From an uncultured Gammaproteobacteria bacterium (GTDB lineage Bacteria; Pseudomonadota; Gammaproteobacteria; Xanthomonadales; Xanthomonadaceae): a stretch of DNA of 64,000 nucleotides. Position 1 is the first letter of the stretch. Each line of letters starts with the position of its first letter. A program made the translations under genes and the position numbers. Under the pieces are notes generated by a model. That model was not told where the DNA came from and searched no databases. It saw only the letters and a list, made by a program, of their open reading frames with translations. Below, piece by piece: positions 2,010-19,521 of the stretch. Location of the stretch: assembly GCA_963816945.1 (NCBI GenBank), contig CAWFMH010000002.1, forward strand, positions 18,500 to 82,499. The letters are read 5' to 3'.

Positions 2010-2603
2010 CTAACGGCGAGGCCTACGAAGCATGGGTGTGACGAGCGGCGCCGCACCGACTTGGATTTCGCCTGTCACCTCGAAACCATGGCGCCGGTAG
2101 AACGGGATGTTCTCCGGTTTCGACGCCTCGAGGTACGCCAACGCTTGTTCCTGGTCGCAGCGGGCGAGCGCATGGCGCATCAACGCCGCTCCGATGCCTT
2201 TGCCTTGCGCATTCGGGTCGACGCCAATCTGCGGCAAATACCAATGCACCTCGCGGGGATGCGACTGTCCCATCTTCTCGAACGTCGCAAGCAGGTCGTC
2301 AAGGTGTTCGCGCTTTGCTGTGTCGCGGAACATCTTTTCGAGGGCCTCGCCGTTGGGCTCCACTCCGGGAGGCAACCAGAGTGCGGCGCCGCAGAAGTCT
2401 GCGGACACATAAGCCGTGCCGTGCTCGAAACAGCTGCCCGCGAACTCGCCGATGGCCAAGGGCATGGTCAGGAGGTAGTCGTGCGGAGAAGGCCAGGCGA
2501 ATCGCGCGGGCGGGTCTGCGATGAATGCAGCTACGATCGCTGCGACGGCGCGCGGCATCTCATCGGATGTGGCGCTACGTATCTGGATTGATGGTTGGGT
2601 CAT
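2010..2603 (-). CDS. GNAT-family N-acetyltransferase
   Basis: 197-aa ORF with an acetyl-CoA binding motif ('QGKGIGAALMRHAL') and a C-terminal 'FYRRHGFE' typical of GNAT folds. Confidence 0.85.
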   Translation of the reverse strand: MTQPSIQIRSATSDEMPRAVAAIVAAFIADPPARFAWPSPHDYLLTMPLAIGEFAGSCFEHGTAYVSADFCGAALWLPPGVEPNGEALEKMFRDTAKREHLDDLLATFEKMGQSHPREVHWYLPQIGVDPNAQGKGIGAALMRHALARCDQEQALAYLEASKPENIPFYRRHGFEVTGEIQVGAAPLVTPMLRRPRR

Positions 2604-2800: not shown

Positions 2801-4219
2801 TTAGATGCGCATCACCGGCGACGCTTGGGTTTCTTGGGCTCGCTGTTGCGCCAGTTGCGTTTGCTCTTGTGCAAGTCGCAGGTTCACCGCTTCAAGCATC
2901 GTATCCGACTCCGCGACAGGCGTTTGCGCAGCGGTCTCGGTTTTTATCACCGTGCGCAGGTGCGCCGGATCGCTGAGGCTGCCCTGGACGATGAACAGAT
3001 GCGCGCCGGGCGGCACGCTCTCGCTGGGCAGGACATGGTCGACTCGCTTGAAGCGCTCGCCCTTCGCCAGCGTCAGCAGGCTGTGGCTGATCCGCTCGCT
3101 CGTTTCGTCGAACTCGCGTCCATGGCGTCGATCGAGCTCGCGGATGTGGCCGCGGATCTGTTCGAGCATGGCGTGGTCGGGATGCTCGGGATCGGCGGGC
3201 GTACGCGAACCATCACTCGGCGCAACGGGCGCGTGCGTGTGGCTCTGATGCGTGTGATCGAAGGTACGACGTGCGTGCGGCGTTTGGCTACTGTCGAGGT
3301 AGGGCTTGGGTGTCGGATTGCCTCTGCCGATGAACAAGCCGTTCTCCTCCAGCAGCTTTTCGCTAAGCCCGAGCCGGTTCATGTCGACGATCATTCGCGG
3401 CTCTACGCCCTTGTGCGGTTTCGCATACGTGCTATCCACTTGTGCGGCATAACTGATCGCGGCTGCAGCGTAGTAATTGACGTAGTCGGAAGTACCGCGA
3501 TACCCGATTCTGGCCTTCCCTGGCGCCTTGTTAAAATAGTTCTGACCCATTGCTTCAATGTTCGCCGGCGTGTCGCTCAAGCTCATGTCTGCGTTCAAGG
3601 TCAGATTTGGCTTCAAGGTGTGAGTTGACGGAGAACCGCTGCTCTCGTCGATAAAATCCGACATCCTTGGCATATTCTTTTTGTAGACATCACCTATTGT
3701 CGCGTTTGGGCTCGCTGCTCGGACCTGGCCGACAAGCGCATTCCATCCTGCAATCTCTGCCTGGGCTTCATCGCGCCGGCTTGCTGCAAGTCTGGCGTCG
3801 ATGTCTGGCGTGTAGTCGTTGACAGGAGACTGGTCCTTTGCCTTGGCGAGAACGTGGTTCCGGAACGCTTTGTCTGCCTTCGCCACGTCTAGGCGGTTGA
3901 AGGCGTGCTGTAGTTCGTGGCCCAGAACAAAGGCGGGCTCCGCCATGTTGAACGGATGCCCCTGCTGAGTGGTGAGCATTGCGGGCGGCAACCTGATCGT
4001 TTGTCTGGCCGGATCAAATTCTCCTCCGGCATTCGTTCCACTTTGTAGCAACTCAAATCCTTTCAGATGACCACCCTGCACCGCGGCGTTGAGTTGTTCC
4101 ACCAAAGGTGGCGAGCTGTCAATGGTGGCTTGCAGGTTTGCCACCTGTTCCGGTGTAACACCTGGCTGCCGAGCGAATCGATTCATTACGGCTTGAACTT
4201 GCGGACTGATGTTTGACAT
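2801..4219 (-). CDS. putative X-T4SS (bacteria-killing type IV secretion) effector: HExxH N-terminal domain plus XVIPCD-like C-terminal domain
   Basis: 472-aa ORF with lower GC than the flanks and an AAGGA Shine-Dalgarno 5' of the ATG. 'GHELQHAF' zincin-type HExxH at residues 100-107. The last ~125 aa ('HPDHAMLEQIRGHIRELDRRHGREFDE...VDHVLPS...HLFIVQGSLSDPAHLR...') end in a Gln-rich tail ('LAQEQTQLAQQRAQETQ'), as in XVIPCD domains. The CDS is secure; the function is inferred. Confidence 0.6.
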   Translation of the reverse strand: MSNISPQVQAVMNRFARQPGVTPEQVANLQATIDSSPPLVEQLNAAVQGGHLKGFELLQSGTNAGGEFDPARQTIRLPPAMLTTQQGHPFNMAEPAFVLGHELQHAFNRLDVAKADKAFRNHVLAKAKDQSPVNDYTPDIDARLAASRRDEAQAEIAGWNALVGQVRAASPNATIGDVYKKNMPRMSDFIDESSGSPSTHTLKPNLTLNADMSLSDTPANIEAMGQNYFNKAPGKARIGYRGTSDYVNYYAAAAISYAAQVDSTYAKPHKGVEPRMIVDMNRLGLSEKLLEENGLFIGRGNPTPKPYLDSSQTPHARRTFDHTHQSHTHAPVAPSDGSRTPADPEHPDHAMLEQIRGHIRELDRRHGREFDETSERISHSLLTLAKGERFKRVDHVLPSESVPPGAHLFIVQGSLSDPAHLRTVIKTETAAQTPVAESDTMLEAVNLRLAQEQTQLAQQRAQETQASPVMRI

Positions 4220-4234
4220 GCCTCATTCCTTGAG

Positions 4235-4858
4235 TCATTTGATGACCACTATTGTCACGCACGCATGAGTAATTTTCTCTACAGGATCACTAGCCTCTCC
4301 CTGCGTAATGACTTCGATATAAAAGCCAGGCCGATAGAACCGATGTTCGATGAGTCGGCCGTGCTCGCCATAGATTGCTTCTTGACTGAAGTCCATCCGC
4401 TCCAGTTCGCGTGCGAAACTGTTGAAGTCGAGCTGGCAGATGGCCGTAGCAGGTGGATCCTTGCGACTTCCTCTCGGTTTAAAGCTGAAGATGAACACTG
4501 GACCGTCCATGCCGGTGCGATCGACATAGAAGCCATAGCTCCAGTCTTGCGTCAGGGTCTCAGCCGCGCCGAATCGATCCGGCCCATCGAAGTTCATCTG
4601 CAGACCCATGACGTTGGAAAGCTTTTCTGGCGTGAAGTCATCGATGGACTTGCTGCCACGTATCAATTCGAGCAGCTTCAGCATCGCGGCTTCGGCGCCG
4701 AACTTCGACTGCGGCAGCACTTCACTGCGCTCCTCCGTTGACATATCTGATTCCTCCTTGGTCAGTGCGGCTGGACTGGACGGGATTTGAGCGCACGCGG
4801 TGAGCGAAATCCCGAAAAGTGCTGCCATGCCGTACTTGTGTAAGCCATCCGTTGCCAT
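4235..4858 (-). CDS. lipoprotein, candidate cognate immunity protein (X-Tfi-like)
   Basis: 207-aa ORF with strong SD (AAGGAG) 7 nt 5' of the ATG at 4858. Signal peptide with lipobox 'SLTAC'. It ends 15 nt upstream of the effector ATG, the same immunity-then-effector order as known X-Tfi/X-Tfe pairs. Confidence 0.5.
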   Translation of the reverse strand: MATDGLHKYGMAALFGISLTACAQIPSSPAALTKEESDMSTEERSEVLPQSKFGAEAAMLKLLELIRGSKSIDDFTPEKLSNVMGLQMNFDGPDRFGAAETLTQDWSYGFYVDRTGMDGPVFIFSFKPRGSRKDPPATAICQLDFNSFARELERMDFSQEAIYGEHGRLIEHRFYRPGFYIEVITQGEASDPVEKITHACVTIVVIK

Positions 4859-4946
4859 CGCTTATCTCCTTATTTGTAGCGGTGCGAACACTTTGCGCAT
4901 GAGTCCTTCAATGACTAAACAGATCACTATCTGATGAGCGCAGGCG

Positions 4947-5414
4947 CTACGAGCTTTTGCAGCGAACATAGACCGACGCAGACTCACCATCACTGATCGT
5001 CAGATCGTCGCCACCCAGAACATAGATGACAGCGTCTTCCTGAATTTCTGGCGGGGCGATGTTGGAGATTGAAACGATCCGCCATGCGGAAGGCGCTTCC
5101 GATACTTTCATGGCCGACTTGAGCGATTCAGTGTGCTCGTATCCATGGAGCTCTCTGCCATCGATCTCGATCCTTGAGTCGCTTTCGTGTATGTCGATCG
5201 CGCGACACTTGCTGTCTGACAGGTCCCACGCCCCGCGTAATTCCGGAGGAAATACCGACTGCTGCGTGGCGATGGTTTCCGGAAACGAGGCGTCCTGTGC
5301 TCGGCTCGGACTCGCGTGGCTGGCCTGGCAGCTTTCGGCTGCCGACGCACGCGAGATCAGGAGCGAGGCGACGAGCGGGACGATGCAGATCCTTTGCATG
5401 AGCATGACTTCCAT
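4947..5414 (-). CDS. secreted hypothetical protein (Sec signal peptide)
   Basis: 155-aa ORF. 'MLMQRICIVPLVASLLISRASAAE' is a signal peptide; the ATG at 5405 has a better SD than 5414. No recognisable domain. Co-directional with the lipoprotein/effector genes and similarly low in GC. Confidence 0.5.
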   Translation of the reverse strand: MEVMLMQRICIVPLVASLLISRASAAESCQASHASPSRAQDASFPETIATQQSVFPPELRGAWDLSDSKCRAIDIHESDSRIEIDGRELHGYEHTESLKSAMKVSEAPSAWRIVSISNIAPPEIQEDAVIYVLGGDDLTISDGESASVYVRCKSS

Positions 5415-5815: not shown

Positions 5816-6058
5816 CCAAGGCTCATGGCGCCGCCGGCAACCCTCCGAGCCCGCCCAGGCGCGATCGAACGCAGCGACTCCGGTACGGAATCCACCAGCG
5901 AGGGGAAGGGATGACCGACGCCCGCGGCGCCCTGCCCGAGCGTCGACTGCCTGGTGCGAAAGGCCCTGCCGGGAATTCCAGAATTGCCGACCGCATTCGC
6001 ACTTGGGCCCGTCGTTGGGAGTAAGGTCGGCGCTCGCTTCGGGACTGGGGGGTGTCCG

Positions 6059-6460
6059 ATGCCGACTTTGCTTCGCAACGTCACGCTCGCCGTGCTGGCC
6101 CTGGCCAGCGGCGCGGTGGCTGCCCATGGCGGTGGATTGAACGCCGAGGGGTGTCACAACGACAGGAAGCACGGGGGCTATCACTGCCACCGCGGCGCCG
6201 CGTCGCGACCACCGCCCGCGCAGAACTTCGCGCCTGCTTCCGGTTTCGGCAATTCACGCGACGATGCTTCGGGCGGCTCGGCCTACCGCAACTGCACCGC
6301 CGCGCGCGCAGCGGGTGCGGCGCCGGTGCGGCGTGGGGATCCAGGGTATGGCACGCATTTGGATCGGGATGGGGATGGGCGGGCTGTGAGTAGCAGGAAC
6401 GCATCCTCTCTTGTCTCAGATTCTGGCCCGAGAGCAAGCCTCAGCGTCCTGTCCACTTAG
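6059..6460 (+). CDS. secreted YHYH-motif / Excalibur-domain protein (3' end apparently frameshifted)
   Basis: ATG at 6059. Signal peptide 'MPTLLRNVTLAVLALASGAVAAHG', a 'GLNAEGCHNDRKHGGYHCH' YHYH-type motif, then the Excalibur Ca-binding motif 'YRNCTAARAAGAAPVRRGDPGYGTHLDRDGDG'. The canonical terminal 'ACE-stop' is present but one frame off (see findings). Confidence 0.7.
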   Translation: MPTLLRNVTLAVLALASGAVAAHGGGLNAEGCHNDRKHGGYHCHRGAASRPPPAQNFAPASGFGNSRDDASGGSAYRNCTAARAAGAAPVRRGDPGYGTHLDRDGDGRAVSSRNASSLVSDSGPRASLSVLST

Positions 6461-6535
6461 CCATACGATTACAAGCGATCAGCTACTCGATGCGTTATCC
6501 GTAAGCACATAACTGTAATCAAAGAGAATGGAACA

Positions 6536-9500
6536 ATGGGAACTCCGGTAAATACTCCATCGCCCCCGCTGGCTCACCCTTTTACGCTATCAAGACACTT
6601 TCCAGAACTTCCGGATCGCGCGATCGACCGCGATCACATCCTAGAGACAGTGGCTCAAGTAGCGACACCAGATTCGCCCGTAGTTTTTATCGAAGGCGCA
6701 GAAGGGATCGGAGCAAGTACTTTCTTGGCTCAATTCGCCATGAAGTACCCAGACCAGACCTTTTGTCTCTTCGTAAGGCCCGCGAGCCGCTTCTCATACA
6801 GTCCTGATTACCTACGCCTGGTGCTTGCAGAACAATACTTTTGGTACGTCCACGGGCGTCGGCTCGACAAGGAGTTCGTAGATATAAGCGAGTTCACGAG
6901 TTTGCAATTGCAAGTGAGAAAACGTAATCGCTCCGGCACTATTTACATAGTTGTCGATGGATTGCACCAAATACCGAAAGAGGATGTAAGAGCGGTCGAC
7001 TTGGTTTTCAAAGAGGTGCTTCCTGTCGGCGTAGATGGATTCAGATTTATCGTAACCGGCGCCCAGGACGCGTCTTCCAAGCATCTCGGCTCGGTCAGAT
7101 CTAAGCCATACCAACTTCATCGACTCTCCGATACTGAGAGTGAGAGTTTGTTGGACGACTTACGTATCGCAAGTGAAGAAACTTCTCAACTAGTCAAACT
7201 TTGTCAGGGTGTCCCGGGCAGACTTAGCTCCGTTCGCCGACTCATCAAGAGCGGCGTGAGCGCAGCTTCGATCCTTCAGTCAGATCCGGACAAGTACCTA
7301 AAGTTCATAGGGCTCGAATTCTCGCCGATTGCAACGATGAGTGATCCCCAGCGGGTACTTCTTGCGCTGCTGGCCTTCAGCCGCCACACAATGAATATGG
7401 ACGAACTGGTTCAAATACACCCAAATGCGACGCTGACCGACCTCAGCTCGGTTTGCACTGAATGCGTCTTTCTGAATGCCGATTTCAAGTCCAGAACAAT
7501 TGAGTTCCTGTCAGAAGCGCATCGCCGTTACGCAGAACATGCCCTAGACCTTTACAAACAGCGAGCGCTCACACTTCAAATCGAGCATCTCATTACCGAT
7601 CCAACGAGTGCAGCGGCGGTGCGCCTACTGCCGACATACTATCAATCTCTAAATCAACAACAGGCTATTGTTGATCTACTTTCAAAGGAACATTATTCAC
7701 AACTGCTTGGGGTTACCCAATCGATATCTGCACTGCGGGCTCGCGCATCACTGGGTGCCAGAAGCGCGATGGAGTTAAAGCAAGCAAAGGCTATTCTTCA
7801 ATTTGCCTTGCACAAGAGCATCTTCTCCGCAGTTGGAAAATCAGAAGAGCTGCAGTCCGAAGTCGGCGCTCTTGTTGCACTAGGCCATCCTCAACGCGCC
7901 TTGGATATTGCCTCGAAAACGGTGGCAAGGGAGAAGCGCATATTCCTCTTGGCCGAGTTTGCACGCCGAACAAGTGAACAGGGCTCGACGGTTGACCCGC
8001 AAATTCTGTCATACATCAGGGAAACGGCAGCGGAAATAGACTTTTCAGAGCTTGGGGAATCTGCCGTTGATCTTGCGGAGAACTTGCTATTTGTGGATCC
8101 AGACCTCGCATTGAAGATTGTAGATATCGCAATCAAAGCTGAGGCTGGCCCTAAGGCTAAAGATGAAGCTTTCGCAAAGCTTTCAGTCGCAGCAACTCTC
8201 AGCAGCAACACTGACAGAGATGATCTAAACGCAAAGTCACAATCAAAAATCTCCAGCGAGTCTCTGCAGAAGCTTTTGGCTTCTCTCAGCCTGATCTTCG
8301 CTGACTTTTCGTTCGACGAGATTGTGCGGACATCAAATACGATGGCCATTGGCAGGCGCATCTATTTCCTGCGGAGTCTGGTTGCCGTAAGCGGAAAACG
8401 CGAAAACATACTCGACGTCATTGACCATACTCTGGACCAGTTGATCGGTGATACTTCATACACACCCAAGGCGAGAGACCTTGCAGACTTAGCCATTCCA
8501 ATTTCGGCGCCAACTCACGACCCACAGCGAATTCAGAACTTAGTTCGGCGACTAGAGGGCCAAATTGGATTGATCGAGAAGGGCGCACCTTCTCGCGACC
8601 TGATATTGCTGCAGATGCGCTTGGCGCACGCTGAGATGTCCATTGACATGGCGCAAGCTCAGAGCCGGATTGAGGAGACTTACTACAGCGTCGCGTCCAT
8701 GGATAACAACGAGATTAGATCTCTTTGTTTTTCAACAATGTCGCGAGGTCTGACGGAAATCGACGTCAATGACGAATTGGAGTCTGCTGCAGGTTTCAGA
8801 GAGATTATTTTGGGAGATCTTAAGGCAACAGTCGAAGGCTTGCTTTCACAAACGGGCAATCACTTTCAGATAGCACGTCCAGCCCTGCGAGCTCTTGCCG
8901 CATCTAACCCGGCGGACGCCGTTGCATTTGTCAGCAAATTGAATACGGAAGATCGAAGGGATCGCGCGTACGCGGAGGTAGCTAAGGCAATAGTCAAGGG
9001 TCGGCACAGTGTCGCCGGCGCATCGTCGATGCATACAGCCCTGTCCATGATTGAAGACACGGACACTTTCAATAGCGCGATTTTAAGACTTGTCGGCGCG
9101 CTTTCATTGTCTGCCCATGCCAGCGAATGGCTGTCTGATGTAAAGCGCGCCGTGTCGCGAGCCAAAGATCCTAGAGTCGTCTGTTCTTCTGAGATAGAGC
9201 TGGTAAAGCTTCTTGGGAAGCTTGGACTTGTCGATGACATCGAAGATCGCGTTGTCATCTTCGAAAGCTGTATCGACCAAGTCGACTCAGCTTATGACCG
9301 CGTCGACATGTGTTTCGAGCTGGCCGCAGCATTGGCGCCTGCGGCGATAGGTCGAGCGTCAGATATCTATGACCGAGGCCTCAAACTGAGACACGCTACT
9401 TCCGTGCCAGGGCAGTCTTCTGCAGTTGTTCTGCGAACTTGTCTGGCATTGCTGTCGCGCGTTTTTAGGCCGCTCATCAAGGTTGATGCATTGCCACAAG

Positions 9501-11458
9501 AGAATCTAGATCGGTTCTTTCAGATTGGGGATCAGATCCCGTGCACTGTCACAAAGGCATCCATGTATTCAGATCTTGCCTGTAAGGCTTGGTGTGAAGG
9601 GAAGGGCGATCTCTGTCAGAAGATCATGAACCAGCGGTGCCTTCCACTCCTTCAATCTTCGGAGCAGGACAACCCAACGCTGTATGCAGACCTGAGCGAA
9701 GCCATATTTCCCGGTCTGTATTGCGCGCATCGAACCACAGCGTTCAACCTATTAGACAAAATGGGCCGTAGTTCGCGCGATCATGCAATTCGAATAACAG
9801 CGTTGATGGTGCTCAGAAAATCGGCACCATCTGAGCCCCGCAGTACCGTGGAGGACGACAGGGTAAAGATCACTGGCCAAGATTTAGTAGATCTAAGTGA
9901 ACTCTTAGGTAAGGTTTCGACCGATGCAGTGTTCTATAACATTCTCCGCGAAGTCGTTACTGTAACCGTGCACAAGATCAATCGGACCCGAATAAGCGGA
10001 CAACAACGGGCTGATTTTACGAAAAAAACAGAGGCAATGATCGCTCAAAAGTTGCCAGATAGCCGCAACATTCGACATTCTGGATACGTAATTATTTGTA
10101 GCGCTCAAACGTTGCGGCTAGTCGATGCAAAGTTTGAACAGTGGCAGGCCATCATTGCGGATGCCGAGACCGTTACGAACGTATCAGATAGATGCTTCGT
10201 CTTCGTTGAGATTGCGGGTTGCCTGCCCCCTAGGCTGCTTGCCGAGCAGAAGAAACTTCTGCAACGGGCCCGCCAAGATATTTCGACCATCCCTTCAGCT
10301 TCCGATCGATATGACTGCCTTGAAGAGTACATTCGCATGGCTCGAAAGGTCGCGCCAGCCGAGGCGAAATCTGCACTCAAAGACGCGCTGATTTTGACTT
10401 TCGACGCATCTCGACCGGAGAAGGCAGCCCGTTATAGGCGAAATCTGGTTGATATTGCCGAGGCGATGGACCCTAGCGTTCTCGACGAACTTGCTGAAAC
10501 GATTGACGACGACCCCGCTAGGGCTGAAGCGAAGGCCGAATTGAAGCGCTCGGTCGAAGTGCACAAACTGAAACGGAAGATTTCTTCTGCAGGTGACAAG
10601 GTCGACCCTTCTCAACTGACGAACAAGTCGCTGCCATCGGCAGCATGGAAGAACGTTGGGGCATTGGTGTCTGACAGACTGGAGCCTAGATCGCCTGACC
10701 TGCTTTCCGTCTATGTTGATGCCGCTGGCTCTTTCTCAATGAGCGACGCATATCCTGTGCTCTGTTGGTACATTGAGAACTCGGCGAGGCGGTATACATC
10801 TCATCATGATGTGAGCACGTTGATTCTTCCGCTAAGCGAAGTGCTGCTTCTCTCGACGGAGATTGCAGCTGCAGTAATAGCTCAAGCACCGGTGCTGGAC
10901 TTTGAGCGAACGGACGATGAACCTCCGAGCATCTCGAGCAATCCAGCTCTTGTTATAAGGCCCGGCGAGAGGGACGTGGCCATCGAATTCATACGCAGAT
11001 GGCTTCGGCATAGCGCGAGCGACCCAGTAGTCTTTTGCGACCCTTATTTTAACCAGGGGGATATGGAGCTTGTTAGGTTGGTTCTAGCCGAATGTTCGGA
11101 TTCTTCACTACGGATTCTTACAAGCAGAAAGGCTGTTTCCGGAGGAAAGGACTTTAGTGCTGAGGCGTTCATGTCTGAGTGGAACGAAATCATCGAACAA
11201 GACCCTCCTCAAACCGAAATTCTCGCCATAACCAGTTTCGGCGGAGAGGAAGTGATCGTTCACGATCGCTGGCTGCTCGGAAGTGAATGTGGCCTACGCA
11301 TTGGCACTTCATTCAATTCGCTTGGAAGCAAACTTTCAGAGATCTCCCATATGCCCAAGGACGAGGCCATACGAGTCCGCAAGGAAATTGATCTTTATTT
11401 TTGTCGTCAAAGAGTTGTTAACGGAGTTCGCGTAAACTACCAGTCGATAAGCTTATAG
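6536..11458 (+). CDS. 1,640-aa STAND/NACHT-like NTPase, helical repeat body and C-terminal PLD-like (H-D-R) domain protein; function unknown
   Basis: Uninterrupted 4.9-kb ORF in a ~50% GC segment, with an AT-rich upstream region and a strong terminator downstream. Motifs: 'GAEGIGAST' (Walker A position, Lys->Ala), 'IYIVVDGLHQ' (Walker B), 'FRFIVTGAQD', 'HDRWLLGSECGLRIGTSFNSLG' (HKD-like). The CDS call is secure; the domain calls are by eye. Confidence 0.9.
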   Translation: MGTPVNTPSPPLAHPFTLSRHFPELPDRAIDRDHILETVAQVATPDSPVVFIEGAEGIGASTFLAQFAMKYPDQTFCLFVRPASRFSYSPDYLRLVLAEQYFWYVHGRRLDKEFVDISEFTSLQLQVRKRNRSGTIYIVVDGLHQIPKEDVRAVDLVFKEVLPVGVDGFRFIVTGAQDASSKHLGSVRSKPYQLHRLSDTESESLLDDLRIASEETSQLVKLCQGVPGRLSSVRRLIKSGVSAASILQSDPDKYLKFIGLEFSPIATMSDPQRVLLALLAFSRHTMNMDELVQIHPNATLTDLSSVCTECVFLNADFKSRTIEFLSEAHRRYAEHALDLYKQRALTLQIEHLITDPTSAAAVRLLPTYYQSLNQQQAIVDLLSKEHYSQLLGVTQSISALRARASLGARSAMELKQAKAILQFALHKSIFSAVGKSEELQSEVGALVALGHPQRALDIASKTVAREKRIFLLAEFARRTSEQGSTVDPQILSYIRETAAEIDFSELGESAVDLAENLLFVDPDLALKIVDIAIKAEAGPKAKDEAFAKLSVAATLSSNTDRDDLNAKSQSKISSESLQKLLASLSLIFADFSFDEIVRTSNTMAIGRRIYFLRSLVAVSGKRENILDVIDHTLDQLIGDTSYTPKARDLADLAIPISAPTHDPQRIQNLVRRLEGQIGLIEKGAPSRDLILLQMRLAHAEMSIDMAQAQSRIEETYYSVASMDNNEIRSLCFSTMSRGLTEIDVNDELESAAGFREIILGDLKATVEGLLSQTGNHFQIARPALRALAASNPADAVAFVSKLNTEDRRDRAYAEVAKAIVKGRHSVAGASSMHTALSMIEDTDTFNSAILRLVGALSLSAHASEWLSDVKRAVSRAKDPRVVCSSEIELVKLLGKLGLVDDIEDRVVIFESCIDQVDSAYDRVDMCFELAAALAPAAIGRASDIYDRGLKLRHATSVPGQSSAVVLRTCLALLSRVFRPLIKVDALPQENLDRFFQIGDQIPCTVTKASMYSDLACKAWCEGKGDLCQKIMNQRCLPLLQSSEQDNPTLYADLSEAIFPGLYCAHRTTAFNLLDKMGRSSRDHAIRITALMVLRKSAPSEPRSTVEDDRVKITGQDLVDLSELLGKVSTDAVFYNILREVVTVTVHKINRTRISGQQRADFTKKTEAMIAQKLPDSRNIRHSGYVIICSAQTLRLVDAKFEQWQAIIADAETVTNVSDRCFVFVEIAGCLPPRLLAEQKKLLQRARQDISTIPSASDRYDCLEEYIRMARKVAPAEAKSALKDALILTFDASRPEKAARYRRNLVDIAEAMDPSVLDELAETIDDDPARAEAKAELKRSVEVHKLKRKISSAGDKVDPSQLTNKSLPSAAWKNVGALVSDRLEPRSPDLLSVYVDAAGSFSMSDAYPVLCWYIENSARRYTSHHDVSTLILPLSEVLLLSTEIAAAVIAQAPVLDFERTDDEPPSISSNPALVIRPGERDVAIEFIRRWLRHSASDPVVFCDPYFNQGDMELVRLVLAECSDSSLRILTSRKAVSGGKDFSAEAFMSEWNEIIEQDPPQTEILAITSFGGEEVIVHDRWLLGSECGLRIGTSFNSLGSKLSEISHMPKDEAIRVRKEIDLYFCRQRVVNGVRVNYQSISL

Positions 11459-11573: not shown

Positions 11574-11605
11574 AAAAAAAAAGCGGCCAATGGCCGCTCT
11601 TTTTT
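11574..11605. terminator. bidirectional rho-independent terminator
   Basis: A9 run (11574-11582), GC hairpin 'gcggcc-aat-ggccgc' (11583-11597), then T6 (11600-11605). It lies between the convergent 1,640-aa gene (+) and aceE (-). Confidence 0.8.
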
Positions 11606-11619
11606 GCCTGCACTCTCGA

Positions 11620-14409
11620 TCAAACCCCAACCGGATTCGGCTTCTCCACATCGATCTTGTACTGCTTGATCGCCCGCGCCACATCCTTCCCCGTCATCTT
11701 CCCTTCCGCCGCCAGCGCCGCGATCGCGGCGTGTGCGATGTAGTAGCGATCGACTTCGAAATGCCGCCGCAAATTGGCGCGCGTGTCGCTGCGGCCGAAG
11801 CCGTCGGTGCCGAGGACGGTGTAGGGCATCGGCATGAAGGCGCGGATCTGGTCGGCGTAGGCGCGGACGTAATCGGTTGCGGCGATGGCCGGGCCCTGGC
11901 GGGATTCGAGCAGTTGCGTGACGTAGGCCTTGCGTGGGGTGGCTTCGGGGTTCATGCGGTTGTGGCGTTCGACGTCGAAGCCGTCGCGGCGCAGTTCGGT
12001 GAAGCTGGGGCAGCTCCAGACGTCGGCGGTGACGCCGAAGTCCTTGTCGAGCAAGTCGGCCGCGGCGATGACTTCGCGGAGGATGGTGCCGGAGCCCAGG
12101 AGTTGGACGTGGGGGGTGCGGGATTTCTTGTTGTTGGGAGCCGGGCCCCCACCCTCGCCGGCTTTGCCGGCTTGACCTCCCCCGCGCGCGGGGGAGGTTT
12201 TGCTGCTCGCGGCTTCGCCGCTTGCATTTCCGGCAGCGGTTGAAGACAGCAGGTACATGCCCTTGATGACGCCCTCGGCTGCGCCTTCGGGCAGGTCGGG
12301 GTGGGTGTAGTTTTCGTTCATCAGGGTGAGGTAGTAGTACTCATCCTGTTGCTCGTCGAGCATGCGGTGCATGCCGTGTTGCAGGATCACGGCGACTTCG
12401 CCGGCGAAGGTCGGGTCGTAGGCGCGGCAGTTGGGGATGGCGCCGGCGAGCAGGTGGCTGTGGCCGTCTTCGTGCTGCAGGCCTTCGCCGTTGAGCGTGG
12501 TGCGGCCCGCCGTTGCGCCGAGCAGGAAGCCGCGCGCGCGCATGTCGGCGGCTTGCCAGGCGCTGTCGCCGATGCGCTGGAAGCCGAACATCGAATAGAA
12601 GATGTAGAACGGCAGCATCGGCAGATCATTGGTGCTGTAGCTGGTGGCCGCGGCCATCCACGACGAGAACGCGCCGGCTTCGGTGATGCCTTCCTCGAGC
12701 ACCTGGCCCGCGGCGTCTTCGCGGTAGTACATGAGCTGGTCGCGGTCGACCGGCTTGTACTTCTGGCCGTGCGGGGCGTAGATGCCGAGCTGGCGGAACA
12801 TGCCTTCCATGCCGAAGGTGCGAGCTTCATCGGCAACGATGGGCACGCAGCGCGGGCCGACTTCCTTGTCGCGCAGGACGATGCTCAGGGACTGCACGAA
12901 GGCCATCGTGGTGCTGATCTCGCGATCGCCGCTGGACTTGAGCAGGCGGTCGAAGACTTCGAGCTTGGGCGCGGTGAAGGTCTGCGTGCTCTTGCGGCGG
13001 CGCTGCGGCAGGAAGCCGCCGAGCGCGTTGCGGCGCTCGAGCAGGTATTCGACTTCCTCGGACTTCGGGCCGGGGTTGTAGAACGGCACGGCGCCGTCCT
13101 TGAGCTGGTCGTCGCCGATCGGGATCTTGAAGCGGTCGCGGAACGCGAGCACGGCTTCGTCGTCGAGCTTCTTGGTCTGGTGGGTCGGGTTGAGCGCTTC
13201 GCCGGCGCTGCCCATGCCGTAGCCCTTGACCGTCTTGGCGAGGATCACGGTCGGCAGGCCCTTGGTGTCGACGGCGTTCTGGTAGGCGGCGAAGACCTTG
13301 TGCGGATCGTGGCCGCCGCGGTTGAGGCGCCAGATGTCGTCGTCGCTCATGTTGGCGACCATCGCCAGCGTCTCCGGATACTTGCCGAAGAAGTTGTCGC
13401 GCGTGTACTTGCCGCCGAAGGCCTTGCAGTTCTGGTATTCGCCGTCGACGGTTTCCATCATCAGCTGGCGCAGCTTGCCGGTGCTGTCCTTGGCCAGCAG
13501 CGGATCCCAGTAGCTGCCCCAGATGGTCTTGACGACGTTCCAGCCGGCGCCGCGGAAGGCGCCTTCGAGTTCCTGGATGATCTTGCCGTTGCCGCGGACC
13601 GGGCCGTCGAGGCGCTGCAGGTTGCAGTTGACGACGAACACCAGGTTGTCGAGGCCTTCGCGGCCGGCGACCGAGATCGCGCCGAGCGATTCGGGCTCGT
13701 CGGTCTCGCCGTCGCCGAGGAAGGCCCAGACCTTGCGGTCGGTCTTCGGCATCAGGCCGCGGCCTTCGAGGTATTTCCAGTTGCGCGCCTGGTAGATGGC
13801 GGCGATGGGGCCGAGGCCCATCGACACGGTCGGCGTCTGCCAGTAGTCGGGCATCAGCCACGGATGCGGATAGGAGCTGACGCCGCGGCCGTCGACTTCC
13901 ATGCGGAAGTGGTCGAGCTGCGATTCGCTGATGCGGCCTTCGAGGAAGGAACGCGCGTAGATGCCGGGCGAGCTGTGGCCCTGCACGTAGAGCAGGTCAC
14001 CCGGGTGCGCCTCGCTCGGCGCGCGCCAGAAGTGGTTGAAGCCGACGTCGTAGAGGGTGGCGGACGATGCAAAGCTGGCGATGTGGCCGCCGAGGTCGCC
14101 GGGCTTGCGGTTGGCGCGCACGACCATCGCCATCGCGTTCCAGCGGATGATCGAGCGGATGCGCCATTCCATCTTGGCGTCGCCGGGCATCTTCGGCTCG
14201 AGGTGCGCGGGGATGGTGTTGATGTATTCGGTGGTCGGCGCGAACGGCAGGTGCGCGCCGGCGCGGCGGGTCAGTTCGACCATGCCCGAGAGCAGCTGGT
14301 GGGCGCGCTCGGGACCGTCGTGGTCGATGACGGCCTTGATCGACTCGATCCATTCCTGCGATTCGGTCGGGTCGGGGTCGTTCTGCAGCAGTTCGTTGAG
14401 CCAGTTCAT
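11620..14409 (-). CDS. aceE: pyruvate dehydrogenase E1 component (homodimeric type)
   Basis: 929-aa ORF collinear with AceE from 'MNWLNELLQNDPDPTESQEWIESI' to '...VQLLGSGTILREV...'. It carries a ~34-aa low-complexity insertion relative to E. coli AceE (see findings). Confidence 0.95.
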   Translation of the reverse strand: MNWLNELLQNDPDPTESQEWIESIKAVIDHDGPERAHQLLSGMVELTRRAGAHLPFAPTTEYINTIPAHLEPKMPGDAKMEWRIRSIIRWNAMAMVVRANRKPGDLGGHIASFASSATLYDVGFNHFWRAPSEAHPGDLLYVQGHSSPGIYARSFLEGRISESQLDHFRMEVDGRGVSSYPHPWLMPDYWQTPTVSMGLGPIAAIYQARNWKYLEGRGLMPKTDRKVWAFLGDGETDEPESLGAISVAGREGLDNLVFVVNCNLQRLDGPVRGNGKIIQELEGAFRGAGWNVVKTIWGSYWDPLLAKDSTGKLRQLMMETVDGEYQNCKAFGGKYTRDNFFGKYPETLAMVANMSDDDIWRLNRGGHDPHKVFAAYQNAVDTKGLPTVILAKTVKGYGMGSAGEALNPTHQTKKLDDEAVLAFRDRFKIPIGDDQLKDGAVPFYNPGPKSEEVEYLLERRNALGGFLPQRRRKSTQTFTAPKLEVFDRLLKSSGDREISTTMAFVQSLSIVLRDKEVGPRCVPIVADEARTFGMEGMFRQLGIYAPHGQKYKPVDRDQLMYYREDAAGQVLEEGITEAGAFSSWMAAATSYSTNDLPMLPFYIFYSMFGFQRIGDSAWQAADMRARGFLLGATAGRTTLNGEGLQHEDGHSHLLAGAIPNCRAYDPTFAGEVAVILQHGMHRMLDEQQDEYYYLTLMNENYTHPDLPEGAAEGVIKGMYLLSSTAAGNASGEAASSKTSPARGGGQAGKAGEGGGPAPNNKKSRTPHVQLLGSGTILREVIAAADLLDKDFGVTADVWSCPSFTELRRDGFDVERHNRMNPEATPRKAYVTQLLESRQGPAIAATDYVRAYADQIRAFMPMPYTVLGTDGFGRSDTRANLRRHFEVDRYYIAHAAIAALAAEGKMTGKDVARAIKQYKIDVEKPNPVGV

Positions 14410-14724
14410 GCGTCTCGCGGCCCCGTGGCCGCGCCTCTTTGAATGGGGACAGGGAAGGGTTTCGATTCTAGCAGGGGGTCGGAGTCGGGCCGGCGCCGTG
14501 CGGTGGCCTGGAATGGTGCGTCGCAGGAACTGCGACTGGGTGCGTGCAGGGTGGCGCGTGCGCGCTGGAACATGCTCGTTGTAATGGGGGCGAAAGGCCC
14601 CAGTTCACGAGTTCAAAACAAATCGCCGAGACGGCCGCGCGCGCTACGCCGGCGGATCGCCACGGGCCCTCGTTCGGCCCGCCCTGTTCATCCTTCGACC
14701 CGCTCCCGCGGGAATACTGAGCCC

Positions 14725-19521
<4,797 letters not shown>

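Follow-up and report, generated by a model that had tools for sequence, protein, structure and literature searches.

What is the function of a protein of 1,640 residues whose gene, foreign in composition to its surroundings, lies beside aceE in an uncultured bacterium of the Xanthomonadaceae? The gene occupies positions 6536 to 11458 of the stretch of DNA analyzed here, 64,000 nucleotides of contig CAWFMH010000002.1 (positions 18,500 to 82,499, forward strand; assembly GCA_963816945.1), hereafter called the window. An initial annotation, made from the sequence alone, had described the product as an orphan with three parts, a nucleoside triphosphatase (NTPase)-like N-terminus, a helical middle and a phospholipase D (PLD)-like C-terminus, and had suggested a new single-gene defense system. 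The open reading frame (ORF), its low G+C content and all of the peptides quoted from it are confirmed here, and the three-part layout is upheld by AlphaFold2 (AF2) models and Foldseek searches at the termini and by internal repeats in the middle. The protein is no orphan: we found 93 clusters of homologs and analyzed 144 full-length relatives. With a confidence slightly better than even, we regard it as a self-contained, horizontally transferred conflict protein of the NLR-like (STAND) type, most likely one that acts against phages or plasmids and joins sensor and effector in a single polypeptide. New in this analysis are a clade of relatives that lack the Walker A Lys (the lysine-less clade), an HxR...GTSxN variant of the HKD motif, and a domain homology to VPA1262 (Juno).

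Domain architecture and conserved motifs

Structure prediction indicates that the N-terminus has a STAND fold. An AF2 model of residues 18-480, built from 24 homologs, has a mean predicted local distance difference test (pLDDT) score of 86.8. When this model was compared with the Protein Data Bank (PDB) by Foldseek, the best match was Avs3 bound to phage terminase (E 7.5e-10). Further matches are the archaeal STAND-TPR protein 6mfv, Apaf-1, MalT (template modeling (TM) score 0.57), CED-4, the NB-ARC domain of NRC1 and NLRPs, and the E values of the STAND matches range from 1e-10 to 1e-5. Sequence profiles give a fainter signal. In a Pfam scan of 24 N-terminal sequences, AAA_16 was matched by 20, nSTAND_NTPase5 by 12, AAA_22 by 11, NACHT by 10 and NB-ARC by 4, all of these being weak or sub-threshold matches (best E 2e-07 to 1e-04 for AAA_16, nSTAND5, NACHT and NB-ARC). 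The 1,640-residue protein itself reaches the threshold of none of the curated STAND models (NACHT, NB-ARC, AAA_16, nSTAND), its score against AAA_16 being 18-22 bits, below the 32.6-bit cut-off, and a Pfam search with this protein alone gave no significant match. Searched against the PDB by sequence, the full protein and the family profiles gave either 0 matches or weak matches to helical-repeat and P-loop proteins.

The initial annotation had credited this module with P-loop motifs in canonical order. Its STAND fold stands, but its motifs are degenerate: the catalytic Lys of Walker A (GxxxxGK[ST]), expected of the STAND NTPase class, is absent, and Walker B lacks its second acidic residue. 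D141 and G142 of the Walker B-like strand are invariant, and the two positions at 144-145 are His-Gln in the lysine-less clade and Asp or Glu in the sister clade. In the putative GxP motif, C223, G225, P227 and G228 are conserved at 97-99%. The two residues that had been singled out for mutagenesis, D141 and H1576, are both invariant in 34 aligned homologs.

The identity of the residue at the Walker A Lys position divides the family. Among the 144 full-length relatives it is Lys in 46 and Ala, Thr, Val or Ser in 92; most of the former have an acidic residue at 144, 145 or both, and the latter mostly read DGLHQ. Neighbor joining gathers the lysine-less proteins into a single clade (97 members; recall 1.0, precision 0.95), in which one Lys, two Arg and two truncated sequences are exceptions. 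Ala (82%), Thr (8%) and Val (5%) occupy the position in this clade, as against Lys (100%) in the sister clade, and the motif consensus is GxGA[ST]T with DGLHQ in the one and GKT with DGxD[DE] in the other. The two types also differ in their hosts, Lys-type proteins occurring in Bacillota, Verrucomicrobia, Desulfobacterota and Chloroflexi and lysine-less proteins in Beta- and Gammaproteobacteria.

Because Walker A is without its Lys and Walker B without its second acidic residue, the N-terminal module of the lysine-less clade is probably not an active NTPase. Switching in this clade is probably independent of nucleoside triphosphate (NTP) hydrolysis and perhaps also of NTP binding. In Apaf-1, CED-4, MalT and NLRs, the Walker A Lys is intact and the module works as a nucleotide-exchange switch; in the lysine-less clade, the usual exchange of ADP for ATP may be either altered or dispensed with. 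We take the paired Walker losses to mean that the switch has come to work differently, through coordinated change, and not that function was lost. The module does not appear to be decaying, since residues 51-100, D141 and G142, and the CxGxPG motif all stay highly conserved in the lysine-less clade; residues 51-100 are in fact its most conserved stretch, with an entropy of 1.15 bits versus 1.84 in the Lys clade. The replacement at position 329, where the lysine-less clade has His, coincides with the loss of the Walker motifs and might be compensatory.

The C-terminal domain is, by its predicted structure, a member of the PLD superfamily in fold. The AF2 model of residues 1466-1640 has a pLDDT of 94.2 and a predicted TM score (pTM) of 0.90, and Foldseek returned 29 PDB matches at E<=1e-3, nearly all of them from this superfamily. 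These include NucT, FAM83A, Streptomyces PLD, SauUSI, PLD3/PLD4, PssA, PPK1, TrmBL2 and MITD1; Zucchini and Tdp1 come just below that threshold. Pfam PLDc_2 is matched weakly by 14 of 62 C-terminal domains (best E 0.0013). By column entropy over the 144 relatives, this domain is the lowest-entropy part of the whole protein.

As to the HKD-like signature that had been noticed here, the PLD fold and the canonical spacing are borne out, but HxR stands in place of HxK and the Asp at +7 is not conserved. An hmmsearch comparison places the motif on the HKD motif of Escherichia coli PssA with the same spacing (H0, x, K/R2, then G14, [AT], S16, x, N18), pairing H with H, R with K and GTSFN with GASLN. 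The canonical pattern HxK(x)4D(x)6G[SGA]xN fails because Arg stands in for Lys (99-100%), no Asp is kept at +7 and residues 1582-1585 are variable. The remaining positions are nearly fixed in the 144 relatives: H1576, D1577 and R1578 are conserved at 99-100% and W1579 at 98-99% in both clades, followed by G1586, G1590, S1592 and G1597 (98-100%), T1591 (91-96%) and N1594 (72-78%). D1502, which follows strand 2 of the domain, is invariant in 34 sequences and conserved at 96-99% in the 144. Judged from these alignments, the motif is an HKD variant with Arg for Lys and without the +7 Asp.

Enzymes of the PLD superfamily assemble an active site out of a pair of HKD motifs; those with a single motif, Nuc for example, work as dimers. 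The single-HKD nucleases (Nuc/NucT, SauUSI, Zucchini) are the best structural matches of the C-terminal domain (NucT, E 2.5e-5, TM score 0.55-0.66), which likewise has one motif per chain, spaced as in the HKD motif of PssA; dimerization would therefore be needed to complete an active site. The domain differs from these nucleases in its Arg and its missing +7 Asp, and identity to them is 8-13%.

Between the two terminal modules, residues 341-1465 are rich in Leu (11.6%) and Ala (12.2%) and poor in Pro and Gly (3.6% each). When the region was compared with itself by hhalign, residues ~517-948 matched ~787-1284 (probability 95.8%, E 7.6e-9), an internal duplication, and the weak PDB profile matches of the region are to helical repeat proteins (TON_1535 and designed helical repeat proteins). 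Residues 341-1465 gave no sign of a catalytic domain. It is on account of this composition, these internal repeats and these profile matches that we read the region as a helical solenoid, as the initial annotation had expected. Column entropy reaches 2.2-3.0 bits in residues ~801-1150, compared with 1.2-2.0 bits at the termini, which makes this segment a candidate specificity-determining region.

Relation to Avs proteins, Juno and HDR-type domains

The protein appears to resemble the antiviral STANDs (Avs, bNACHT), yet it belongs to no named family that we can point to; none had been recognized in the initial annotation, and PADLOC agrees. Avs1-5 (AVAST; Avs3, PDB 8dgc) are likewise single large proteins in which an effector is fused to a STAND module and a long helical-repeat sensor, both groups are accessory and horizontally mobile, and Avs3 is the best structural match of the N-terminus. 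The differences are considerable. In Avs proteins the order is effector, NTPase, sensor, whereas here the NTPase-like module begins at about residue 28 and the only enzyme-like domain stands at the extreme C-terminus, so that the inverted order proposed for this gene holds. Sequence identity is only ~15%, and the Walker A Lys and Walker B acidic residues are missing in the lysine-less clade. We know of no Avs effector that is a PLD-type HxR domain. Apaf-1, CED-4, MalT and the NLRs share with the protein a P-loop domain, a helical domain with a GxP motif and a winged helix; they differ in their output domains and in having kept the Lys that the lysine-less clade has lost.

A connection to defense comes from the C-terminal domain. 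VPA1262, a family renamed Juno in August 2026, is an experimentally validated single-gene anti-phage system (bioRxiv 10.64898/2026.08.01.741415). All of 30 C-terminal domains examined match positions 321-473 of the NCBIfam model VPA1262_N_dom (NF040700), with a best E of 1e-15; the scores are 37-43 bits (43 for the domain of the 1,640-residue protein) against a cut-off of 80 bits, and one third of the model is covered. The model of the whole VPA1262 family (NF040699) is matched by 8 of the 30, at 12-17 bits against a cut-off of 325 (best E 6.5e-06). Like the gene described here, Juno is a single gene in mobile or variable regions; unlike our protein, it has ~1,026 residues and carries the homologous domain in its N-terminal half. 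In this comparison through the NCBIfam model, the homology between the C-terminal domain and part of VPA1262 is solid, and we interpret it as a domain shared by separate families. It bears on the use of the domain in defense, not on its mechanism. No VPA1262 protein was recovered when the C-terminal domain was searched against plasmids by tblastn, and a C-terminal profile search for Juno-like architectures returned only members of the family itself and short metagenomic fragments.

The domain also resembles the HDR-type PLD domains, in which an Asp or Glu follows strand 2 and an HDR motif precedes strand 5; these include MIT_C of MITD1, PB-PLD1 of Menshen NsnC and many BrxL C-termini, and they are predicted to be enzymes, acting as effectors in Menshen NsnC and BrxL (PMC12065111). 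Both features are found in our model, D1502 directly after strand E33-36 and H1576-D-R before strand E114-116. MITD1 (2YMB) is matched by Foldseek at E 1e-3 and is among the highest-identity structural matches (13-16%). The family differs in also retaining the GTSxN half of the HKD motif. Pfam MIT_C matched none of 62 C-terminal domains at E<=10, a PDB profile search returned nothing for MITD1, and hhalign against a provisional MITD1 sequence was not significant (E 0.029, probability 1.7%). Because there is no significant sequence link to MIT_C, we treat the relationship as resemblance rather than membership.

Distribution, mobility and gene context

The 93 homolog clusters, defined at 90% identity in a search of 5.8 billion proteins, are nearly all unnamed. 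Most have a query cover of at least 95%, a length of 1,611-1,678 residues and 24-59% identity; nine are shorter and partial. The 90%-identity cluster of the 1,640-residue protein has this protein as its single member, no other sequence being at least 90% identical. Against 1.84 billion representatives, a C-terminal profile matched 1,642 proteins at E<=1e-3 and 566 at E<=1e-30, and the best 150 of these matches are full-length family members or C-terminal fragments of them. Searching 185,579 species genomes (one genome per species) with a 7-sequence alignment gave 15 loci in several phyla, the patchy distribution that had been looked for, with hosts in Dokdonella, Solimonas, Cupriavidus, Ralstonia, Paraburkholderia, Comamonadaceae, Oxalobacteraceae, Verrucomicrobia, Desulforhabdus (Desulfobacterota) and Chloroflexia. 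Full-length relatives were also present on five of 72,556 plasmids, from Aromatoleum EbN1, Bacillus cereus, Exiguobacterium, Carnobacterium and Cytobacillus. The family is rare, phyletically patchy and ancient in its architecture.

Foreign composition is a feature of the family as well as of this copy. In 16 of 17 loci, the G+C content of the gene is 5-22 points below that of its flanks. Here, the gene has a mean G+C of 0.509, compared with 0.665 for the remainder of the window; every 500-nt segment within it falls at 0.48-0.54, whereas aceE and the Lhr-type helicase ORF lie at 0.66-0.69, and G+C at third codon positions is 0.52 in the gene and 0.90 in aceE. The gene is foreign and horizontally acquired. 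No direct or inverted repeats that would mark a transposon or an integration scar were found flanking it.

An all-versus-all comparison of flanking ORFs from 18 loci revealed no neighbor present in more than 3 loci and none adjoining the gene. Because no neighbor is conserved, the single gene is likely to be the functional unit, in keeping with its description as monocistronic. The neighbors that do occur are often of a mobile or defensive kind. The Caballeronia copy adjoins a phage-type integrase with ParDE and TacAT modules, a copy on a conjugative plasmid adjoins insertion sequence (IS) elements and integrases, and the copy on the B. cereus plasmid adjoins an ATPase gene and a TIR-domain gene. 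In the arrangement seen at locus L002 (396-10657), a Lys-type homolog, P0093, lies 43 nt downstream of a type III Mod/Res pair on the same strand. The pair comprises an N6/N4 methyltransferase of 840 residues (Mod) and a ResIII helicase-nuclease of 930 residues (Res); the layout is identical on L002-L004, and the shorter L005 keeps an intact ResIII gene alone upstream. Mod, Res and P0093 may form a three-gene unit rather than a chance adjacency. At locus L015 (2209-16430), the homolog lies between the PtuA-like candidate PDC-M01A/B and Tn7-like tnsB/tnsC/tniQ genes and appears to be cargo of a Tn7-like transposon. Among 83 flanking proteins of 12 genomes, PADLOC also recognized AriA/AbiLi-type ATPases, a NERD-UvrD protein and a type IIG restriction-modification enzyme. 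Locus by locus, these examples suggest an association with defense islands.

Three loci show in-frame stops on straight translation: L015 (5702-10580) has 76, L019 (434-5310) has 26 and L020 (10001-16280) has 70, the match in L020 covering 6.3 kb rather than the usual 4.9 kb. Pseudogenes, an inserted element or assembly errors in metagenome-assembled genomes are possible explanations.

The features of the gene and its neighbors are collected in Table 1. Its Met1 is invariant among 34 aligned homologs, which makes the start codon common to full-length relatives (about 1,620-1,670 residues). A scan for sigma-70 consensus promoters upstream of the gene found no match. The gene is not, as had been stated, the largest in the window, since the Lhr ORF is longer. 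The strong bidirectional terminator that had been assigned to it was found by the scan; in it the stem-loop AGCGGCC-AAT-GGCCGCT (stem at 11582-11598) is preceded by an A run and followed by a T tract. It lies 14 nt beyond the aceE stop and 116 nt beyond the stop of the 1,640-residue gene, and is therefore not specific to the latter; it belongs to aceE at least as much.

Table 1. Coordinates in the window of the 1,640-residue protein gene, its predicted domains and motifs, and neighboring features.
Feature	Position	Strand	Basis or remark
Complete coding sequence, 1,640 residues plus stop, ATG start	6536-11458	+	ORF list and translation; single-gene unit
Predicted STAND nucleotide-binding oligomerization module, residues ~28-340 (P-loop domain, helical domain, winged helix)	6617-7555	+	AF2 and Foldseek
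Degenerate Walker A GAEGIGAST, residues 54-62; Ala60 in place of the canonical Lys	6695-6721	+	
Walker B-like strand YIVVDGLHQI, residues 137-146; acidic pair exchanged for His-Gln	6944-6973	+	
CxGxPG, residues 223-228, putative GxP motif of the STAND helical domain	7202-7219	+	GxP assigned from its position in the model
His329 in SExHRR motif, end of winged helix	7520-7522	+	96% in lysine-less clade; Phe/Tyr in Lys clade
Putative helical repeat array, residues 341-1465, presumed to sense a ligand and act as scaffold	7556-10930	+	composition, self-alignment, profile matches
Duplicated part of the array, offset ~270 residues	8084-10387	+	residues ~517-1284
Most variable segment of the family, residues ~801-1150	8936-9985	+	column entropy
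Predicted PLD-superfamily domain, residues 1466-1640, presumed effector	10931-11455	+	AF2, Foldseek and profiles
Asp1502 in CDPYF motif, directly after strand 2 of the PLD-like domain	11039-11041	+	model and alignment
HKD-variant motif H1576-D-R1578-W...G1590-T-S1592-F-N1594 (HDRWLLGSECGLRIGTSFN, residues 1576-1594)	11261-11317	+	
Leader of lower G+C, 75 nt, presumed promoter and ribosome-binding site region	6461-6535	+	from Excalibur-domain ORF to start codon; promoter presumed
Bidirectional intrinsic terminator, common to the gene and convergent aceE	11574-11606	.	scan and sequence
X-Tfe type IV secretion effector gene with XVIPCD domain	2801-4219	-	
Excalibur-domain ORF	5954-6460	+	
aceE, convergent with the 1,640-residue protein gene	11620-14409	-	
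Lhr-type large helicase ORF, 1,692 residues (DEAD, Helicase_C, WH_Lhr, DEAD_assoc domains)	14443-19521	+	

The surroundings agree with the initial annotation in that aceE and an interbacterial-toxin gene, an X-Tfe gene whose product bears the Xanthomonadales-specific XVIPCD domain, are both present. Two small unannotated ORFs (4235-4858 and 4947-5414, minus strand) come after the X-Tfe gene, and together the three (2801-5414, minus strand) occupy a second patch of low G+C (0.51-0.56). Probably these ORFs make up a toxin-immunity module that arrived independently of the 1,640-residue gene. Farther left, a GNAT acetyltransferase gene (2010-2603, minus strand) is 87% identical in nucleotides to a copy in the unclassified Lysobacter genome GCA_018612745.1, and the 90%-identity cluster of its product includes proteins of 'unclassified Lysobacter'. 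The host is accordingly a Lysobacter-like bacterium, in agreement with the XVIPCD domain. Comparison around this gene with GCA_018612745.1 found no synteny in the flanks, and insertion boundaries are not definable in that way. Because the GNAT gene alone is shared and its flanks are non-syntenic, the left part of the window appears variable even among close relatives. The 64,000 nucleotides contain no tRNA or tmRNA genes, and no Rfam family scores above its gathering threshold.

Proposed mechanism, alternative explanations and significance

The computational support that the initial annotation had named for its defense-protein reading, a STAND match at the N-terminus, a PLD-superfamily match at the C-terminus and a patchy phyletic distribution, is found in full, and we infer a function in defense. 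We propose that the helical array, whose repeats and hypervariable stretch make it a natural sensor candidate, would recognize a protein or nucleic acid of the invader. Recognition would free the STAND module to oligomerize, and oligomerization would join two or more C-terminal half-sites. Such activation by proximity would follow the same logic as in Avs nucleases and in TIR and SIR2 effectors. The joined half-sites would switch on a phosphodiesterase that cuts nucleic acid or, less likely, phospholipid, so that the invader is destroyed or the infected cell dies. Nucleic acid is the likely substrate because of the structural matches to NucT and SauUSI. A phospholipid substrate, or membrane binding alone as in MITD1, is also compatible with the data, if less likely. 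A more specific form of the proposal can be offered only tentatively, as we think it possible but doubtful: a new single-gene family of bacterial NLR-like immune proteins with an HxR-type PLD phosphodiesterase output, as in Juno, whose largest clade is P-loop-dead and oligomerizes independently of NTP upon sensing an invader.

Several observations weigh against the proposal of a conflict protein with a phosphodiesterase output. No PADLOC model, those for Avs included, matches the 1,640-residue protein at E<=1. Loss of the Walker A Lys normally disables a STAND switch, and in the C-terminal domain the HKD motif has Arg for its catalytic Lys and no conserved Asp at +7. Described antiviral STANDs carry their effectors at the N-terminus, which would allow the C-terminal domain to belong to the sensor instead. 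The putative helical array is read from sequence features. Neither GenBank phages nor IMG/VR viral contigs yielded a relative, which leaves no hint of a trigger. The copies in this window, in Solimonas and in P. viridiflava sit amid ordinary metabolic genes with no recognizable defense island. Finally, the closest relatives by motif, the MIT_C domains of MITD1, are known for binding membranes rather than for catalysis (PMC11962514).

The last of these points leads to the possibility that the C-terminal domain of such a conflict protein is not an enzyme but a dimerizing module that binds membranes or phospho-ligands, whose output would be to target membranes or disrupt them, or which would belong to the sensor. 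Its replaced Lys and lost +7 Asp would fit this role, as would its position, the usual place of a STAND sensor. The Asp after strand 2 and the HDR before strand 5 are the signature of MIT_C and PB-PLD1 (PMC12065111), and MITD1, which is among the structural matches of the domain with the closest identity, associates with membranes through its PLD-like domain (PMC11962514). We nevertheless consider a non-enzymatic domain unlikely. The His, Asp, Arg and GTS residues are absolutely conserved in about 140 divergent proteins, as expected of an active site; the top structural matches (NucT, PLD, SauUSI, PLD3/4) are true nucleases or phosphodiesterases; and Arg is able to take over the phosphate-binding role of Lys. 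HDR-type domains are themselves predicted to be enzymes by the authors who described them (PMC12065111), and neither Pfam MIT_C nor the hhalign comparison with the provisional MITD1 sequence establishes a link in sequence.

Other explanations place the protein outside of conflict altogether or question its activity. The presence of MalT and Apaf-1 among the best structural matches, together with the location of several loci amid metabolic genes, could indicate a cellular signal-transduction STAND, whether a regulator of the MalT or AfsR type or a scaffold, with a housekeeping role. This is very unlikely given that no DNA-binding or other regulatory output domain was detected, that the distribution is extremely rare and patchy with foreign composition in 16 of 17 hosts, that copies travel on plasmids and on a Tn7-like element, and that no conserved neighborhood marks a regulated pathway. 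The narrower reading as a transcription factor was ruled out, no DNA-binding domain being present. We give little credence to an interbacterial toxin or addiction module; such a protein might, for instance, be exported by the Xanthomonadales type IV secretion system encoded close to the X-Tfe gene. The gene does lie in an accessory patch 2.3 kb from the XVIPCD-bearing X-Tfe effector gene, and PLD-family enzymes include secreted antibacterial toxins; yet the protein shows no XVIPCD, PAAR, Rhs or signal-sequence features, no conserved immunity gene adjoins it, homologs are known from phyla without that secretion system (Bacillota, Verrucomicrobia and Chloroflexi), and an N-terminal STAND module is atypical of secreted effectors. 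As a secreted toxin in the strict sense the protein was ruled out, having neither XVIPCD nor any other secretion marker. That the lysine-less clade might be a decaying, non-functional remnant of a once-active STAND gene is scarcely credible. Both catalytic NTPase motifs are lost and three homolog loci contain in-frame stops, but more than 90 divergent lineages (29-59% identity to the 1,640-residue protein) keep intact 4.9-kb frames of near-constant length, the lysine-less clade is the more strongly conserved of the two over residues 51-100 (1.15 versus 1.84 bits), and HDRW is conserved there at 99% or above.

If the gene is confirmed to act in defense, it would represent a new architecture of bacterial NLR/STAND immunity, with the NTPase module first and the effector last. 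It would also offer a handle on the newly reported Juno through the shared HxR PLD-like domain, with D1502, H1576 and R1578 as clear targets for point mutations, and the two sister clades, with and without the Walker A Lys and the Walker B acidic residues, would amount to a natural paired experiment on the need for NTP. Whether a STAND receptor can work without binding or hydrolyzing NTP is under debate in plants and animals too, for NLRs whose P-loops are degenerate. More broadly, the family lends support to the proposal that HDR-type PLD folds, such as those of MIT_C, BrxL C-termini and Menshen PB-PLD1, are functional effector modules.

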